Positions 811 to 46,705 of a stretch of 64,000 nucleotides of DNA are shown in pieces. The notes beneath the pieces are model-generated. The model worked only from the letters and a program-made list of their open reading frames with translations. It was not told where the DNA came from and searched no databases. Numbering within the stretch: position 1 is the stretch's first letter; each line of letters opens with the position of its first letter. The position numbers and the translations under genes are program-made. The stretch is taken from assembly GCA_023512255.1 (NCBI GenBank), contig JAILZY010000003.1, forward strand, positions 29,400-93,399, in the 5' to 3' direction. Origin of the DNA: a bacterium (GTDB lineage Bacteria; SZUA-182; DTGQ01).

Positions 811-1454
811 GTGATATAGTAAGATCGACCAGGTTTACACCGGATCAGCGGGATGGGGTGTTGTCAACCTTAAAGGCCGCTTTTGAGACTGTGAAAGATA
901 CCCTATCCGGTGCTCTGTGTACGCCCTTCTCGATTTATCGGGGAGATAGCTTTCAGGGAGTATTGGATAGACCAGAGCTTGCCCTGCGGGCAGTGCTCAT
1001 CATTCGGGCAAGTCTTGGATGCGGTTTTCTGGCTGCGCATCGCCGGCTGAGGCTCGATGCCCGGATGGCAGTAGGCATTGGAGAAGTTGATTTTCTTCCC
1101 AAGGGTTCAAGCTCCGAAGGGGACGGGGAGGCTTTTCGGCTCTCAGGGCCTGCCCTTGATAATATGGATAGGATGAGAGGGGGGCAGCGGCTGGCGATTC
1201 GAACACGGTGGCCGGAGGTTAATGCCGAATTTGATGCCGAGTGTGCCTTGCTGGATGCTCTGATCAGCAAATGGTCTGTGGGGCAGGCGCAGGTCATTAT
1301 GGCCCAGGTCAGGAATCTGACTCAAGGTGCGGCTGCCCGCGAGCTTGGTATTTCTCAGCCCGCGGTCCAACAGCGTCTGAAGCATGCTGGCGGTTGGGCA
1401 GTGGCTGAGTTCTGTCGTCGCTATGAGGAGGTTATCAGCCGACTTAAGGGGTAA
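777..1454 (+). CDS. satD: SatD-family protein: N-terminal class-III nucleotidyl-cyclase-like domain fused to a C-terminal sigma-70 region-4-type HTH
   Basis: The N-terminus YAVITGDIVRSTRF resembles the cyclase motif (a)LFaDIVGFT, and RGDSFQ resembles the second metal-Asp motif IGDAYM. The C-terminus VRNLTQGAAARELGISQPAVQQRLKHA is an ECF-sigma-like HTH. The satD/satE gene pair is known from the Streptococcus sat (ffh) locus. Confidence 0.6.
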   Translation: MESRKLYAVITGDIVRSTRFTPDQRDGVLSTLKAAFETVKDTLSGALCTPFSIYRGDSFQGVLDRPELALRAVLIIRASLGCGFLAAHRRLRLDARMAVGIGEVDFLPKGSSSEGDGEAFRLSGPALDNMDRMRGGQRLAIRTRWPEVNAEFDAECALLDALISKWSVGQAQVIMAQVRNLTQGAAARELGISQPAVQQRLKHAGGWAVAEFCRRYEEVISRLKG

Positions 1455-1456
1455 GG

Positions 1457-1535
1457 TTATTAAAAGTTTTAGGAAAGGGGTTTTAAGGGGAAAACCCTTA
1501 CTCGATAAGGGTTTTCTCCCTCGACTTGATTATGA
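1457..1535 (+). repeat. Family-3 repeat element copy A (ttaaaagttttaggaaagggg...aaggggaaaaccctta...taagggttttctccc), hairpin-forming
   Basis: About 75 % identical to 23808-23890. It contains the imperfect hairpin gggaaaaccctta/taagggttttctccc. It may also act as a weak terminator after satD. Confidence 0.6.
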
Positions 1536-18399: not shown

Positions 18400-18548
18400 T
18401 AAGGTGGTCTTTTCGCTAACAAAGTGCGCAAGCTGGGGGCGAACACAAGGGCCGCCCCTACAATTAGCTTATCCGCCCCTTCAATTTATAGCGTAATTGA
18501 TCCGCTGCGCACTTGTGTTAAGCACTTGGCGAGAAAACCACTTAAGAA
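18400..18548 (-). repeat. Family-1 repeat element copy A (~130-150 bp, imperfect ~30-bp terminal inverted repeats, conserved core cgtaacacaagttgcgcagcggatcaattacgctat)
   Basis: This is the reverse complement of the copies at 37580-37700 and 46578-46705. It lies about 250 bp upstream of hemL. Confidence 0.8.
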
Positions 18549-18672
18549 AGCTAGCCTGAAGTATGTAGGCAAATGGGCAGCGCGCCTTACTTGAGGCGAG
18601 GCTAGAAGCAACCAAATGTCGAGTTATAAACCTTTATGGTCAGGCATTTAGAAGAATAAAGCGGGGAAGATG

Positions 18673-22845: not shown

Positions 22846-23736
22846 TCATCCGCCATCTGGATTAGCATAACAGTAGAGGCAGTTATGACGGCAGGGTTGA
22901 AGATGATAAGAGCCGATATCGCGGGAGAGTTTGCATCTGCACCCTTGAGCATGGCGCTGCCCGTAGTCAATTTGCAGGCAGAGGCGGCCGCCGAAGAGCT
23001 TTTGGAAAAAGTCATTTGGAATACATGAGCTTGGTCTGATCCGTGAATCTGAAGGGAGAAGGCTCACTAACTCCTCCTCGCAGCAGGTGTAAAGATCAAG
23101 GGAGAGTGCGGCCAGCTTTTTTTCCATCTCAAGAAGAATTTTAATTTGCTCCTCAATTCCCGGATAGATAAACTTAAATCCGGGACGACTGCGAATGCGC
23201 CTTCGAATCTTGCCGTAATCATCCATGAAGCTGGTTATGCATCGTCTAATTCCCAGGCGGCTAAGGGCTTGGGCTATGCGGTCAAAATCCTGAAGATTGT
23301 CGCACACCTTTTCCCCAGGCTCATGCTGATAAAAACAGATAGGGTCAAACCTCCAAGCGATAACCTGAGGGCCAAATTCCCGGCTCAAATCCTGGGCTTG
23401 CCTAAGTCTCTCATCAAGAGGTGGGATGGCTGGCTCAAGAAGCCGATCTTCAGAGTTTATAGTAAACTGAAAAAACAGGTTAAATCCTCGTCTGATCAGC
23501 TCCTGTCCATATCGGGCAGCTAAAAAAGGGCCAAAATTCTTTGACCAAAAGACAATGGTGTGAACCTTGTCAGCAGTGGCTGCTACAGTCATCATCTGCC
23601 CAGAGACCGGATTTGGCACCGTAAAACTTCCCCGTTCAATTCTCTCCATAAACCAATCCATGTAAAAAGCCGGAATATCAGTTCTCCTGGAAGCAGAAAT
23701 GACTATCTTTTCAATCTCATCTTTGAATCCCTTCAT
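22846..23736 (-). CDS. DUF1848-family protein
   Basis: Has an ASRRTDIPAFY N-terminal motif and a C-terminal Cys cluster CRHNCLYCYANP. The start was moved to MKGFKDEI, preceded by a caggag RBS, because the ORF-track start would translate a palindrome. Confidence 0.45.
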   Translation of the reverse strand: MKGFKDEIEKIVISASRRTDIPAFYMDWFMERIERGSFTVPNPVSGQMMTVAATADKVHTIVFWSKNFGPFLAARYGQELIRRGFNLFFQFTINSEDRLLEPAIPPLDERLRQAQDLSREFGPQVIAWRFDPICFYQHEPGEKVCDNLQDFDRIAQALSRLGIRRCITSFMDDYGKIRRRIRSRPGFKFIYPGIEEQIKILLEMEKKLAALSLDLYTCCEEELVSLLPSDSRIRPSSCIPNDFFQKLFGGRLCLQIDYGQRHAQGCRCKLSRDIGSYHLQPCRHNCLYCYANPDGG

Positions 23737-23751
23737 TAAATTAACTCCTGT

Positions 23752-23880
23752 TGGTTGGAAGGAACCCTTTTGAAAAAGGGTTCCTTCCAAACCATCCTCC
23801 TAAAACTTTAATAGCTAGGCTATTAAAGTTTTAGGAAAAGGGTGATAAGGGGAAAACCCTTTTTCAAAAGGGTTTTCCCC
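23752..23880. promoter_or_regulatory. Three consecutive perfect palindromes (17-bp stems) in the divergent intergenic region
   Basis: P1 23752-23788 is ttggaaggaaccctttt-tg-aaaagggttccttccaa. P2 23797-23833 is cctaaaactttaatagc-tag-gctattaaagttttagg. P3 23845-23880 is aaggggaaaaccctttt-tc-aaaagggttttcccctt. Confidence 0.7.
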
Positions 23881-23890
23881 TTATTTTACT
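23808..23890 (+). repeat. Family-3 repeat element copy B
   Basis: Aligns with 1457-1535. Confidence 0.6.
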
Positions 23891-23933
23891 CCTCGCGATT
23901 GACATTTGAAAGGCATTTTCATAGAATCGGCCC

Positions 23934-25694
23934 ATGAAAATCATGCTCATTACCCTTCCTTTTTTTAATCCTGCCGAGCCGCCCGGCCAGCTTGCCTTAC
24001 TCAAGTCGCTGTGGCAGCAGGAGCAGCCAGAATGTACGGTCATAGCCTTTGATGCCAATATTGATTTTCTAAACTATGTCCTGCGCGGCGACTATCTCAG
24101 GGAGCGGCTGGCTGCCTTCACCGCCACAAAGCCGTCTGCCCGCCAGCTAACACGGGCCAGGCGGGCCTGCTTGCAAATTGAGCGGGCTCAGGCCGCACTC
24201 GGCTCAGCCGAAGGATATCGCTCACTCGGTCGCTATCTTGCCTTTGTTAACTGCCTGAACGATGCCCTAAGGCTAGTGTTTGCTACGCATCCTGAGCTGG
24301 CAATCTCGTTGACTAACTTCCGGCTGCTTCCCTTTGCGGCAGTGGATCTAGCCAATAACCTGCGCTTTGCTAGCCAAAGCCCCTACCCTCCCTTTGATGA
24401 CTGGTGCGCCGGCCAACTTTTCCCCAAGATCGAGCAGCATCGGCCTGAGATCATAGCCTTCTCCCTGACCTATCTCTCCCAGCTCTTTCCCACGCTCTTG
24501 GTAGCGGCAAGGCTCAAAGCCCGCTTTCCCAAAATTGTGCGAATCATTGGCGGCGGACTGATCAACTGCTACCGTAGCCGGCCACGGCAGAGCCTGGCAC
24601 TGCTTGGCGCACTCTTTGACTGGATTATCTTTGGCCGGGCAAAAGAGCTCGGCTCTGCTATTCCCTGGTCTTGGCTCCTTAGACCGCAAAAAACCGCGGC
24701 CAAAATGAACCCTTTTCTTGAAACCTCAGACCTTATGCCCGATCTTCCTGCCCCTGACTATGGAGATTTTGATTTATCCAGCTATTTTTCTCCGCTTCCT
24801 ACTCTGCCCTATGCCACCAGTCTTGGTTGCTACTGGAGCCGGTGCGCCTTCTGCCCTGATGCGGGTCGAAGCCCCCATATCAGCGGCAGCAGGGAGCTTG
24901 CCCGCAACCTGAAAAAAACCCTGCTCAGCCACCCAGGAGCGCTTTTTCACTTCACTGATCCGGCTGTTCCGCCGACCAATATGGAAATTATCGCTGATGT
25001 TTTTGCCGGGCAAGGTGCGTCCTATTATTCCTTTGTCCGCTTTGAGAGCTGCTTTGAGGATGCTGCACTCGTCAGGCGACTTTCCTCCTCAGGATGCAGG
25101 ATGCTACAATTTGGCTTAGAAAGCGCCTCAGAGCGGCTGCTATCCTTGAGCCAAAAAGGGATCGATCTTAGACGAGCTGAGAGGATTCTGGCGCTTTCAG
25201 CTCAAGAAAAAATCCTAAACTATGTCTACCTTCTCTTTGGCCTGCCTTCGGAAACCGAACAGGACCGAAACCAAAGTCTCGAATTTATTATCAGAAATCA
25301 TCACACTGTTCATTTCATAAACCCCAGCCTGATGAATTTACCAATCGGAAGCCCTATGGAAAGAGAGCCAGAGCGGTTTTTCATTGACTGGACCTATGAA
25401 TTAGCCACTGAATTAGCCACGGCCAGCGGCAGCAGTGGTCTGGCCGATGAAGATGATGGGGAAGATCAGGGAGGAAAATCGCAGGCTGGCCCTAATCAGG
25501 AGGCTGAAAGAGCAGGCTCCCCCTTTAGCCTGTATAAGGGGTTTATCTCTCAAGGAGAAAATACCCGAGTATCGGCCCGGCGTTTTCTTGAGAAGGTGTT
25601 TTTCCCTCATCCCCTGGTGGCTTCAATCATGAGGCATGATCCGCCCTTCTTTCGGGCAGCTCATGCTCTTTTCTTTGGTCCCTTAAAGTGGTAA
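23934..25694 (+). CDS. B12-binding-domain radical SAM protein
   Basis: Has an N-terminal B12-binding-like domain, the Cys motif CYWSRCAFCPD and the radical-SAM elp3 signature LLFGLPSETEQD. 586 aa. Confidence 0.7.
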   Translation: MKIMLITLPFFNPAEPPGQLALLKSLWQQEQPECTVIAFDANIDFLNYVLRGDYLRERLAAFTATKPSARQLTRARRACLQIERAQAALGSAEGYRSLGRYLAFVNCLNDALRLVFATHPELAISLTNFRLLPFAAVDLANNLRFASQSPYPPFDDWCAGQLFPKIEQHRPEIIAFSLTYLSQLFPTLLVAARLKARFPKIVRIIGGGLINCYRSRPRQSLALLGALFDWIIFGRAKELGSAIPWSWLLRPQKTAAKMNPFLETSDLMPDLPAPDYGDFDLSSYFSPLPTLPYATSLGCYWSRCAFCPDAGRSPHISGSRELARNLKKTLLSHPGALFHFTDPAVPPTNMEIIADVFAGQGASYYSFVRFESCFEDAALVRRLSSSGCRMLQFGLESASERLLSLSQKGIDLRRAERILALSAQEKILNYVYLLFGLPSETEQDRNQSLEFIIRNHHTVHFINPSLMNLPIGSPMEREPERFFIDWTYELATELATASGSSGLADEDDGEDQGGKSQAGPNQEAERAGSPFSLYKGFISQGENTRVSARRFLEKVFFPHPLVASIMRHDPPFFRAAHALFFGPLKW

Positions 25695-30269: not shown

Positions 30270-30495
30270 AAGCTCAACCCCTCTGCTCGCTCGCGCGGGG
30301 GCTTTTTATCTCTCGACCCATTCAACCCCTCCCTGAACGCCCTCTGCTCGCTCGCGCGGGGGCTTTTTACGAACCACGAATGAACACTAATTCACACAAG
30401 CTCAACCCCCTGCTCGCCCGCTGCGCGGGGCGTAGGTTTTAGCAGGTCAAGCTGGCATATGGCGCTCAACCCCTCTGCTCGCTCGCGCGGGGCTT
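30270..30495 (+). repeat. CRISPR-like mini-array: 4 degenerate direct repeats (~29-30 bp, consensus gctcaacccctctgctcgctcgcgcgggg) at a 60-68 bp period, no cas genes
   Basis: Repeat cores are at 30279-30308 and 30339-30368 (identical 30-mers), 30399-30430 (variant) and 30464-30492. The spacers are unique and 22-38 bp long. Confidence 0.45.
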
Positions 30496-36160: not shown

Positions 36161-37579
36161 ACTCCTCTCGAATTCTCCTTATATCAAAAGATACCTTCCT
36201 TGGCTAAAGCAAGCTAAGAGTTTATCTTAGGCTGATAATTTCTTGCCCCCTATAAACGACGGTTTTTGGAATAACTCTTCTAATCTTAAAGTGAGCACTC
36301 ATTACAGAGGGTATCTTCATCCGCGACTTGACAAAAGGGGCAGGATTGGTAAAAGTTATAGTTAATACTGTGGTCATTTTCTACCGTTCCTGCTAACACT
36401 AGCGGCTCTATCTTGCTGACTTTTAACATTGTGTCTAACATTGTGTAAAGATTATTCTCTTCCCTCTCCGTATAGGTATTCTTCTCTTCACTCCCTAATG
36501 GATATGCCTGGCCCATTATACTATACTCTCCCTTGGCCTATACTGTGCTATTTCTAAGGATACTCTCTCTTAATCTATTTTTCTTGCTTTTAACCATACA
36601 ACTCACTCCCCATATAATGCGGGTGCTGGTATCGAGTCGCTGGATTCCCCCCTCTCACTCACTTCCCGCAATACGGGTTGTGAAACTCTCCGCAAAGAAA
36701 ACTTTTATTAATCCATAGGCTACTCACCCCCTGCCATTAGTTTCTTGCCAAAAGGCGCTCTTACGGTATTGACAGAGAAACACTCTTCAAGCCTAAATAG
36801 AGAAAGCTTCCACTATAGCGGTAGGGATACTGTTGCCTTCTTTAGAGCTTCCAGGAAACCTAAGATTAATCAACAGGTTTTGTGGAAACTATTAATAGCT
36901 GTACTGGATGAATAGAGTATCAGCCAAAGAATAACAGAGCTGAAAAATGACAACTGGCAGGAACAATTCGCTATCCCCCCTATTTTATTCCCCTTTTTTA
37001 CTCCCCCTATCTGGCGGCATTCTTTATATAATGCAATAATCGTGCCTCGCTCATAACTTGCTCTCTATTTAAGAGATTGTCGTTGTAATATAGGCAATTA
37101 TTTAATAGTTACAATTTTTCACCATTACTATATTATTAATTAGACAATGAAATAGTTTTCATATTTATGATTTATAACATATTGTTAACTCAGAGTATTA
37201 TATCATTTTACAGATATCTTATCGGTTATGAAATTTTTTTCCTATTCAGCTATCAGCCTTTTCTTATCTTCAACGCTTAAGCAGGGGCAGCTTTTTTAAG
37301 GCCTTTCATTTTCTCTTCTGAAGCTGTCCTATATATGACGAAGGGTTTTAAATAAATTTATCATTTCATCTTTTCTGGGATTTATCTGGTTTTTCCCTTA
37401 AAAATTTTAGACGGACATTCTATCGCCTGCCTTACACCGATTACCCATTTTTGTCCTATGCACTTCGTATTTCGATGACAGGTCCGCTATGGTCGTCTAT
37501 TCCTTTATTGCTGCCAGAAATACCTTGGCCATAAACTCTGGGCTGAAACTGTTCTTTCATCTTCATCCCTCCTTACCTT

Positions 37580-37700
37580 AGTGGTCCTCTCGCTAAGTAC
37601 GTAACACAATTGCACAGCGGATCAATTACGCTATCAACTGTAGGGGCGGCTCTAAGGGCCGCCCAAATTGCGCACTTTGTTAGCGAAAGAACCACTTAGG
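37580..37700 (+). repeat. Family-1 repeat element copy B
   Basis: Shares the core cgtaacacaattgcacagcggatcaattacgctatcaactgtagg and the flanking arms gtggtcctctcgctaag / cgcactttgttagcgaaagaaccac. Confidence 0.8.
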
Positions 37701-46439: not shown

Positions 46440-46577
46440 ATACTCTTGATCCTCCAGTTTTTTCTCAATAAAAACTATACTTTTGCGGAAAATTTCTAAA
46501 AACTACACTCTTCCGGTAAAATTTCATGGTTTTTCATGAAAATTCATCCCTTCATCCAAAGCCATCGGTTAGCGCTA

Positions 46578-46705
46578 AGCGGTTTTTTCGCCAAGTGCGT
46601 AACACAAGTTGCGCAGCGGATCAATTACGCTATCAATTGTAGCCTGCGGACCTTGTGCCCCGCCGGCGGCTTGCGCTAACTTTGTTAGCGAAAAGACCAC
46701 TCAGT
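46578..46705 (+). repeat. Family-1 repeat element copy C
   Basis: Core gcgtaacacaagttgcgcagcggatcaattacgctatcaattgtag with the terminal arm ttgttagcgaaaagaccac. Confidence 0.8.

Follow-up and report, generated by a model that had tools for sequence, protein, structure and literature searches.

Three perfect palindromes between a DUF1848 gene and a radical-SAM gene as the probable copy of a dispersed head-to-head hairpin repeat

The DNA analysed here, called the window in the following, is a stretch of 64,000 nucleotides from a bacterium of the GTDB lineage SZUA-182; DTGQ01 (assembly GCA_023512255.1, contig JAILZY010000003.1, positions 29,400 to 93,399 of the forward strand), and all coordinates count from its first letter. 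A gene for a DUF1848 protein on the minus strand and a gene for a radical S-adenosylmethionine (radical-SAM) protein on the plus strand (start codon ATG at 23934) are separated by a gap of 197 bp. This gap holds three perfect palindromes:

23755-23790, hairpin on the minus strand: P1, TTGGAAGGAACCCTTTT-GA-AAAAGGGTTCCTTCCAA, with 17-nt arms that are 100% complementary and a 2-nt spacer.
23799-23815 and 23819-23835, no strand: P2, CCTAAAACTTTAATAGC-TAG-GCTATTAAAGTTTTAGG, with 17-nt arms around TAG.
23845-23884, plus strand: P3, ATAAGGGGAAAACCCTTTT-TC-AAAAGGGTTTTCCCCTTAT, with 19-nt arms that are 100% complementary and a 2-nt spacer.

Folded as single-stranded DNA, P1 reached -16.9 kcal/mol (z -5.6 against dinucleotide shuffles), P2 -13.3 kcal/mol (z -6.3) and P3 -18.4 kcal/mol (z -6.3). 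For the entire stretch of 141 nt a folding energy of -54.3 kcal/mol was obtained, compared with -17.7 +/- 2.9 kcal/mol for shuffled sequences (z = -12.7), and none of 200 shuffles equalled it. Among the short-spaced inverted repeats of 100% complementarity listed for the window, none is longer than P1 and P3, and the window contains no other palindromes of the length of P1, P2 or P3. Both share a core of 20 nt, P1 being the reverse-complement version. A relaxed hairpin pattern derived for this family matched exactly three times in the window, whereas 0.04 matches are expected from shuffled sequences.

When 23817-23884 and 1457-1520 were aligned to 23755-23817 in reverse complement, three copies of one module of about 60 nt became apparent. 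The module begins with the head (C)TATTAAAGTTTTAGGA, which is followed by a purine tract of 7-10 nt, a linker of 3-7 nt and a long hairpin. The basal stem of the hairpin carries purines on the 5' arm and pyrimidines on the 3' arm, and its apex AACCCTTTTTCAAAAGGGTT (AACCCTT...AAGGGTT) is a near-invariant palindrome. Two of the modules face each other in the DUF1848/radical-SAM gap, and the third stands alone elsewhere in the window:

23755-23884, no strand: the whole element, a 130-bp head-to-head hetero-doublet of a P1-type module (minus) and a P3-type module (plus), ending at the outer hairpin feet.
23755-23790, minus strand: P1 hairpin of the GGAAGG module, with the 5' arm TTGGAAGGAACCC and the apex AACCCTTTTTCAAAAGGGTT, both read on the minus strand.
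23792-23801, minus strand: purine tract of the P1 module, AGGAGGATGG; reversed, it matches the purine arm GGAAGGAA with 7 of 8 allowed purine-motif triplets, including T·A:T.
23798-23813, minus strand: head of the P1 module, TATTAAAGTTTTAGGA, which makes the left arm of P2.
23814-23820, no strand: doublet junction GCTAGGC, the variable part of the element.
23799-23835, no strand: P2, a palindrome made of the two facing heads plus the 7-nt junction.
23821-23836, plus strand: head of the P3 module, TATTAAAGTTTTAGGA.
23833-23842, plus strand: purine tract of the P3 module, AGGAAAAGGG; in its best register it mirrors the arm GGGAAAA at 7 of 7 positions.
23845-23884, plus strand: P3 hairpin of the 'GGGGAAAA' module, with complementary arms and a fold of -18.4 kcal/mol.
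1458-1519, plus strand: solitary P3-type module, with the head TATTAAAAGTTTTAGGA at 1458-1474, the tract AGGAAAGGGG at 1471-1480 and the hairpin at 1487-1519.

The stems of P1 and P3 differ at four positions (GGAAGGAA versus GGGGAAAA), and each change is compensated on the opposite arm. The junction of the doublet is self-complementary in the present copy (GC-TAG-GC) and thereby extends the arms of P2 from 15 to 17 nt; in other copies of the doublet it comprises 4-27 nt of different sequences, for example TTAAGA, TCTTAA, GCTATAC, TATA or ACAATAGC. The initial annotation, made from the sequence alone, had presented P2 as a palindrome in its own right; it is instead the junction of two inverted modules. 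The three perfect palindromes themselves are present as had been described, judging from the complementarity of the arms and the z-scores of the folds, and the common core bears out the proposed kinship of P1 and P3. It had further been stated that a 75-bp element recurs downstream of satD. The recurrence was found (1457-1520, identical to the P3 unit in 56 of 72 columns of the alignment), but it extends over about 65 nt.

The solitary module fills the 102-nt gap between satD (777-1454; SatD, PF16264, 39.4 bits) and the gene for a DUF3307 protein (1557-2315), the usual partner gene of satD. Since it occupies almost this entire gap, it is probably cotranscribed within a satD-DUF3307 operon. Its hairpin contains one G-T pair and a loop unlike that of P3. 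This G-T is the lone mismatch of the stem and would read as a G-U pair on the mRNA strand.

To determine how often the module occurs, metagenomes were scanned with a pattern consisting of the head and the start of the hairpin, which gave 105 exact matches at 79 loci. Contigs of the metagenomes Ga0078972 and Ga0207433 are 96-97% identical to the window across about 17 kb and carry the orthologous sites, and for this reason they were used as a stand-in for the source genome in the copy counts. About 67 exact-pattern modules, tallied from the scan table, lie on 32 contigs (2.64 Mb) of Ga0078972, which corresponds to a density of about one module per 40 kb. The relaxed hairpin pattern identified 132 family hairpins in the fetched loci (numbered L in the following), 63 of the P3 type and 48 of the P1 type. 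Among them are 29 non-redundant doublets with a length of 125-143 bp (one of 167 bp). All are arranged head to head, every one consists of one GGAAGG (P1)-type and one GGGGAAAA (P3)-type module, and their ends are the hairpin feet, TTTGGAAGG... and ...CCCCTT(A). The P1-type module was found only alongside a P3-type partner, and the solitary modules are of the P3 type with TATTAAAAG (four A), as in the satD copy.

The copies are mostly situated between genes: 72 of 93 elements are cleanly intergenic, nine overlap a crude open reading frame (ORF) call and 12 lie at the edges of the loci. Divergent genes enclose 11 doublets, convergent genes another 11 and tandem genes 16. No strand bias with respect to the flanking genes is apparent for the solitary modules (same to opposite strand 16:13). 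When the flanks of the doublets were compared for target-site duplications, the length distribution equalled that of a shuffled-partner control. The doublet is present at the orthologous DUF1848/radical-SAM site in L205 and L174, and L178 holds the satD copy. In L123, L125 and L126, in which the DUF1848 protein is 64-72% identical, both the doublet and the radical-SAM neighbour are absent while the downstream synteny is kept. A short-read (Logan) contig of the same organism ends inside P1, a break of the kind expected of assemblies at repeats.

From these results the cluster as a whole is very probably one copy of a non-coding interspersed repeat of about 130 bp made of two head-to-head modules of about 60 nt. 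The initial annotation had left three options for the palindromes, namely operators, repetitive extragenic palindromic (REP)-like elements or a bidirectional terminator/insulator, and had proposed a search for further copies. As reported above, this search yielded many copies in unrelated contexts (at least 29 distinct doublet loci), the outcome that the annotation itself had named as the mark of a generic REP or miniature inverted-repeat transposable element (MITE). Of the three options the dispersal leaves only the REP-like one; copies in all gene configurations speak against an operator and against a terminator or insulator. That such palindromes are selected for was right in spirit, as the stems covary, but it is the repeat family, and not this locus, that is under selection. 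Because the doublet sits between genes of every orientation, its position in a divergent promoter region, to which meaning had been attached, is incidental and an operator serving this locus is very unlikely.

In about 25 copies (e.g., L203, L164, L172, L153, L167, L187, L181, and L184) the 3' arm of the hairpin is tandemly repeated beyond the hairpin foot. The repeated part often includes a few bases of the flank, for example GGGTTTTCCCCTTACTCAAAAGGGTTTTCCCC, and the copies in the window are without it. Such a tandem could be a trace left when the element is copied or when slippage occurs at the hairpin.

The variation between copies was used to characterize the fold of the module. The sample comprised 176 distinct modules, in which stem positions 1-4 were paired by the selection filter and positions 5-6 were unfiltered. 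Watson-Crick pairs occupy the six stem positions adjoining the apex in at least 175 of the 176 modules. Exchanges at these positions are confined to A-T and G-C pairs, and about 98% have their purine on the 5' arm; such a purine/pyrimidine polarity would be superfluous in a plain hairpin. Furthermore, the upstream purine tract is a mirror of the purine arm, that is, it has the same sequence on the same strand, reversed and uncomplemented, and it changes along with the arm:

Arm GAGGAA, tract AAAGGAG.
Arm GAGGGA, tract AAGGGAG.
Arm GGGGAA, tract AAAGGGG.
Arm GGGGGA, tract AAGGGGG.
Arm GAGGGGG, tract GGGGGAG.
Arm GGAAGG, tract GGAGGATGG.
Arm GGAAGA, tract GGAAGATGG.
Arm GGGAGA, tract GGAAGAGGG.

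The arm of the P1 type, GGAAGG, was found in 47 family members and is paired with the tract AGGAGGATGG in all 47. To quantify the relation, runs of allowed purine-motif triplets (G·G:C, A·A:T, and T·A:T) between tract and arm were compared with chimeras combining the tract and the arm of different modules. The mean run is 5.47 triplets, compared with 4.58 +/- 0.09 in the chimeras (0 of 2000 as high), and the perfect mirror arm averages 5.87 nt compared with 4.5 nt. The mirror relation has a z of 9.7, the direct-repeat relation a z of 5.0, and the reverse-complement relation between tract and arm gave no signal (z = 0.7). Among the 41 modules with an arm that is not itself mirror-symmetric, the mirror match exceeds the direct match in 32 and the direct match exceeds the mirror match in four. 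The three modules of the window have 7 of 7, 7 of 8 and 7 of 8 allowed triplets, and the variant stem of P1 is tracked by a variant tract. Other pairings of the tract were considered as well. Watson-Crick pairing with the 3' arm or with the downstream sequence is not kept by the variants (GGAG/GAGG versus GGGG/GGGG; z = 0.7). A G-quadruplex was rejected, as each strand has two G-runs only and none would be formed by variants in which the runs are interrupted.

The order of the blocks on one strand is thus a reverse-Hoogsteen purine block, a purine block and a pyrimidine block, the order that defines a class I intrastrand triplex (PMC4666352); the complementary strand has the order of class III. 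The third-strand block mirrors the purine block of the stem and is separated from it by a linker of 3-7 nt. The purine and pyrimidine blocks are 20-26 nt apart, the distance being taken up by the hairpin extension, so that the module lies outside the short-loop definition of this class of triplex motif (at most 6-10 nt between all blocks). Judged from the arrangement and covariation of the blocks, it is plausible that the module folds as a class I intrastrand triplex. RNA does not support triplexes of the purine motif (PMC4666352), and this, combined with the absence of a strand bias, directs attention to DNA as the level at which the module acts. A precedent for an abundant repeat with such properties is BoxC/PIT/TM_ECO of Escherichia coli, a repeat of class II that was shown to fold into a triplex in vitro and that is a mark of unstable loci (Holder et al. 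2015, PMC4666352; Hoyne et al. 2000).

The module is also present far outside the lineage of the window, whose HemL protein is about 67% identical to that of the nearest named groups. A scan of one genome per species with the pattern AAGTTTTAGGA + AACCCTT + AAGGGTT gave at least 113 loci, compared with about 0.2 chance matches calculated for 596 Gb at uniform composition. Among the matches listed are many genomes of Ruminococcus, Oscillospiraceae, and Eubacteriales, isolates included, nine loci of Candidatus Magnetomicrobium cryptolimnococcus (Nitrospirota), one chromosome of Maridesulfovibrio and one metagenome-assembled genome (MAG) of the Thermodesulfobacteriota. At least 10 copies are present in Ruminococcus flavefaciens FD-1, and eight contigs predicted to be viral or prophage have the pattern as well. 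The R. flavefaciens module lies inside a MITE-like element of about 290 bp with long inverted arms and TTAA-like flanks. Inverted modules are spaced by about 100 nt in Maridesulfovibrio as opposed to 4-27 nt in the species of the window. Since inverted modules are set in different frameworks and spacings across lineages, the module behaves as a reusable building block. A search of Rfam at the gathering threshold with the window and six loci returned one tRNA only, and at a permissive E-value generic hairpin matches. No relevant match was obtained in a literature search with module sequence strings, and none in one on Ruminococcus MITEs.

Two further observations were made on these distant copies. 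The Ruminococcus element of about 290 bp (L011, L065, L090, and other FD-1 loci) has a central segment of about 35 nt, bounded by GGGCGC/GCGCCC, that is present in both orientations among the copies, which suggests inversion between the long arms. In Ca. Magnetomicrobium (L019, L053, L078, and L049) the module is followed by a pure C/T tract of 60-100 nt made of CTTTTTT-type simple repeats, a further homopurine/homopyrimidine feature adjoining the hairpin.

At the DUF1848/radical-SAM locus itself, the following features flank the doublet:

22846-23736, minus strand: DUF1848 gene with corrected start, ATG at 23734-23736 and Shine-Dalgarno sequence AGGAG at 23745-23749.
23899-23927, plus strand: near-consensus sigma-70-type promoter of the radical-SAM gene, TTGACA-17-TAGAAT, matching the consensus at 11 of 12 positions.

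The longer ORF of the DUF1848 gene would include P1 in its translated sequence, and the downstream ATG at 23736 had been suspected to be the real start. Several findings support this start: residue 30 of the long ORF is where the match to the Pfam DUF1848 profile sets in, an AGGAG precedes the ATG by 8 nt, public gene calls give a protein of 296 amino acids and the 18-amino acid extension translated from P1 has no counterpart in any DUF1848 orthologue compared. The foot of P1 is thereby located 18 nt upstream of the DUF1848 start codon. On the other side, the radical-SAM promoter is situated 14 nt beyond the element; it is not part of the repeat and its sequence is conserved in L174 and L205. 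The radical-SAM gene is RiPP (ribosomally synthesized and post-translationally modified peptide)-maturase-like and related to TIGR03975, and an exact look-up of its protein gave no record. Its ATG follows the -10 hexamer after only 7 nt and has no Shine-Dalgarno sequence; given this distance, the mRNA is probably leaderless or nearly so. A gene for a sigma-54 activator is found directly downstream. For DUF1848 a weaker candidate promoter, identified by consensus match only, is TTCAAA-16-TAAAAT at 23910-23883 on the minus strand, which would place P2 and P1 in the leader. Most probably the element has no dedicated regulatory role at this locus, and it is most simply seen as a passenger tolerated between the promoter region and the ribosome-binding site. 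It may incidentally structure the 5' leader of DUF1848, or separate the divergent transcription units and alter read-through.

How could such a repeat have spread? The doublet would be copied as a unit in the manner of REPINs (REP doublets forming hairpins) and of BIME-1 (bacterial interspersed mosaic elements), and the likely route would be a single-stranded DNA intermediate in which each module would fold alone. In the folded shape the upstream purine tract would be laid back in the major groove of the hairpin as a class I purine-motif triple helix. The invariant apex, the head and the folded tract might then be the features that are recognized, with an enzyme of the HUH or RAYT (REP-associated tyrosine transposase) type as the obvious candidate. 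In its widest form this proposal states that the module is a previously undescribed repeat building block, transferred or conserved across the lineage of the window, Nitrospirota, Thermodesulfobacteriota, and Ruminococcus/Oscillospiraceae, whose function would depend on a one-strand class I triplex-capped hairpin recognized by a mobilizing or processing enzyme. We put this widest form forward tentatively and consider it rather doubtful.

Several points weigh against the explanation of the cluster as such a repeat and against the proposed mechanism. The few orthologous stretches (about 97% identity) show no presence/absence polymorphism of the element and thus give no direct sign of recent mobility. 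The regular expression HUH...Y..NP, a crude one, had no match in about 1.6 Mb of fetched DNA, which amounts to only part of any one genome. No mobilizing gene was identified by Pfam among the ORFs enclosed by pairs of elements; housekeeping genes were found instead (TyrRS, glutaminyl cyclase, OEP, ClpC-like, MiaB-like, and MatE). Unlike REP units, the modules have no GTAG, their conserved flank being TATTAAAGTTTTAGGA at 10-17 nt from the stem, and their heads face inward and not outward. The element may after all affect the expression of DUF1848 or of the radical-SAM gene. As to the triplex, the runs of triplets are short (6-8), and in copies of the Ruminococcus type the linker is largely paired into the stem, leaving scant room for a turn. 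Moreover, the copies are related by descent, so that permutation statistics overstate their independence, and 55 of 96 arms mirror themselves, which blurs the distinction between mirror and direct relation.

The last two points also favour the view that the mirror relation is a by-product of purine-rich low complexity and shared descent, in which case there would be no triplex and the element would be an ordinary REP-like hairpin repeat. In addition, chimeric controls already reach runs of 4.6, and the direct-repeat relation, too, lies above the control (z = 5). Against this stand the higher z of the mirror relation (9.7 against 5.0), its prevalence of 32:4 among the informative modules, the presence of at least eight distinct arm types, each with a matching tract, across four phyla, and the strict polarity of the stem, which a plain hairpin leaves unexplained. 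We give this explanation nearly even chances. It is unlikely that the element is kept for a role at the RNA level, as a stabilizer or terminator of transcript ends, the way REP hairpins work in enteric mRNAs, or as a 5'-leader structure. Hairpins of -17 to -18 kcal/mol would stop 3' exonucleases, P3 is followed by TTATTTTAC, flagged in part as terminator-like, and in Magnetomicrobium T/C-rich runs come after the copies. In other genomes, convergent genes flank many of the copies, and the candidate promoter of DUF1848 would put P2 and P1 in its leader. However, solitary modules are without strand bias (16:13), doublets are equally frequent between divergent and convergent genes, a U-run is absent at P1, at P2 and at most copies of the family, no Rfam family was found at threshold, and the purine-motif third strand does not form in RNA (PMC4666352).

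With a still lower probability the element could be a classical MITE, i.e., a deletion derivative of an insertion sequence (IS) with a DDE transposase, mobilized in trans via terminal inverted repeats. The 130-bp unit is indeed bounded by the two modules as inverted repeats, and the module of R. flavefaciens is part of the MITE-looking element with TTAA-like flanks described above. In the lineage of the window, however, target-site duplications were not detected, the ends are hairpin feet and not tips of the transposase type, solitary modules are common, and no IS with matching ends was found among the ORFs enclosed by pairs of elements. Only one transposase was encountered between modules, that of a degenerate IS of the DDE_5 family at L149:9320-10980, whose terminal inverted repeats are unrelated to the module. 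The operator hypothesis, in which a dimeric regulator on P1 and P3 and another on P2 would control the divergent DUF1848 and radical-SAM genes, is the least credible of all and may practically be dismissed. It draws on the position between divergent genes, close to the -35 box of the radical-SAM promoter (14 nt) and to the DUF1848 start (18 nt), on the sigma-54 activator gene just past the radical-SAM gene and on the 20-nt apex, which is sequence-invariant like a protein-binding site. Yet a site found at no fewer than 29 unrelated loci, in all intergenic configurations, is not promoter-specific. The module also occurs beside housekeeping genes (tyrS, clpC, and a miaB-like gene) and in other phyla, and there are relatives that have DUF1848 without the element. 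Finally, the stems covary to preserve pairing, which is a property of single strands and not of duplex operators.

The IS in L149 has the ends CTAAAGTTTCGCAG/CTGCGAAACTTTAG and a frameshifted transposase. It is inserted in the A+T-rich junction of a doublet, whose halves are parted by about 1.5 kb, and its transposase was rejected as the mobilizer, its own ends being unrelated to the module. Comparisons by eye with the consensus of an integron attC site and of a site for integration host factor (IHF) gave no match either.

Other repeats were encountered in the window. Compared with window 1454-1461, L178:1119-1363 contains a clean insertion of 243 bp, whose ends CGCTCTTA.../...TAAGAGCG are inverted and which is accompanied by a duplication of 7 bp, GGTTATT. 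This unrelated small element directly abuts the solitary module on its 5' side. Another copy, related to the insertion and with the ends TCGCTCTTAT/ATAAGAGCGA and GTATGG on both sides, is situated at about 2330-2436 of the window after the DUF3307 gene and is absent from L178. The 243-bp type is a true MITE that is polymorphic between strains of 97% identity. At 30290-30462, between genes, short G+C-rich units are repeated (...AAAAAGCCCCCGCGCGAGCGAGCAGAGGG...), and this stretch differs in length and content from its orthologues in L174 and L205 (171 versus 103 nt). Furthermore, a repeat of about 60 nt (...GCGTAATTGATCCGCTGCGCA..TTGTGTTA.GCACTTGGCGA...) occurs at 18488-18550, 37577-37631, and 46576-46630 with 86-93% identity; the first copy is oriented opposite to the other two.

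For the annotation of this locus the analysis removes a false regulatory lead and fixes the start of DUF1848. The local feature is ordinary and the operator idea is explained away, while the family is moderately surprising because of its conservation across phyla and its triplex-type covariation. The 11-nt head and the 20-nt apex are identical in at least four phyla, whereas REP-type repeats are normally lineage-specific, and the three-way covariation of tract, purine arm and pyrimidine arm, combined with the strict strand polarity, exceeds what an ordinary hairpin needs. Should the triplex reading be true, the module would be the first repeat family with a spread tied to a DNA triple helix. 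It would offer a natural, abundant and evolutionarily tested system for the recognition of non-B DNA by enzymes in bacteria, a question left open by the work on BoxC/PIT, and would point to a mobilizing activity yet to be found.

Among known systems, the subterminal hairpins of IS200/IS605 elements (and of PATE) are recognized as single-stranded DNA, and base triples contribute to this recognition. The present modules resemble them in having hairpins with conserved flanking nucleotides and in leaving no target duplication. In IS200/IS605, however, both end hairpins are on the same strand, whereas our modules are inverted, with no tnpA or tnpB nearby. With the MITEs Correia, ERIC, RUP, and Nezha the doublet shares that it is small, non-coding, bounded by inverted repeats, multi-copy and intergenic and forms long hairpins; unlike these, it shows neither target duplication nor a matching IS in the present lineage and has no Rfam match.

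A parallel in terms of strand composition is BoxC/PIT/TM_ECO, which likewise combines a purine block, its pyrimidine complement and a mirror purine block on one strand (PMC4666352). Here as there, one strand could fold into a purine-motif triplex and the complement into a pyrimidine-motif triplex. The two are without sequence similarity and differ in class: TM_ECO is of class II (Y-R-RH), its blocks being 9 nt and its loops 3-6 nt long, and the module described here is of class I (RH-R-Y) with 6-8 triplets. Its 'loop' between the R and Y blocks is the invariant hairpin extension of 20-26 nt, and triplex finders limited to short loops would therefore miss it.

In organization the repeat is most readily compared with the BIME-1 or REP doublets of E. 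coli and the REPINs of Pseudomonas, which are likewise short extragenic hairpin units in tens to hundreds of copies (Bertels and Rainey 2011, PMC3116915; PMC3337134). Common to both are the inverted doublet of two units with a short variable spacer, the additional occurrence of singlets and the lack of a target-site duplication. A BIME doublet consists of two distinct sequence types, Y and Z, and the two units of the present doublet, too, belong to two distinct sequence types. Four features of the REP/BIME/REPIN group are thus found here, namely the palindromic nature of the unit, its dispersal in extragenic copies, the inverted doublet and the combination of two types of unit. GTAG is absent, and for a cognate RAYT gene, typically flanked by units in that group, the crude motif search of about 1.6 Mb gave no match. 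Beyond these features, and unlike REP, the present unit has a purine tract in addition, which mirrors its stem, and whereas REP families are normally specific to a species or genus, it is conserved across phyla.

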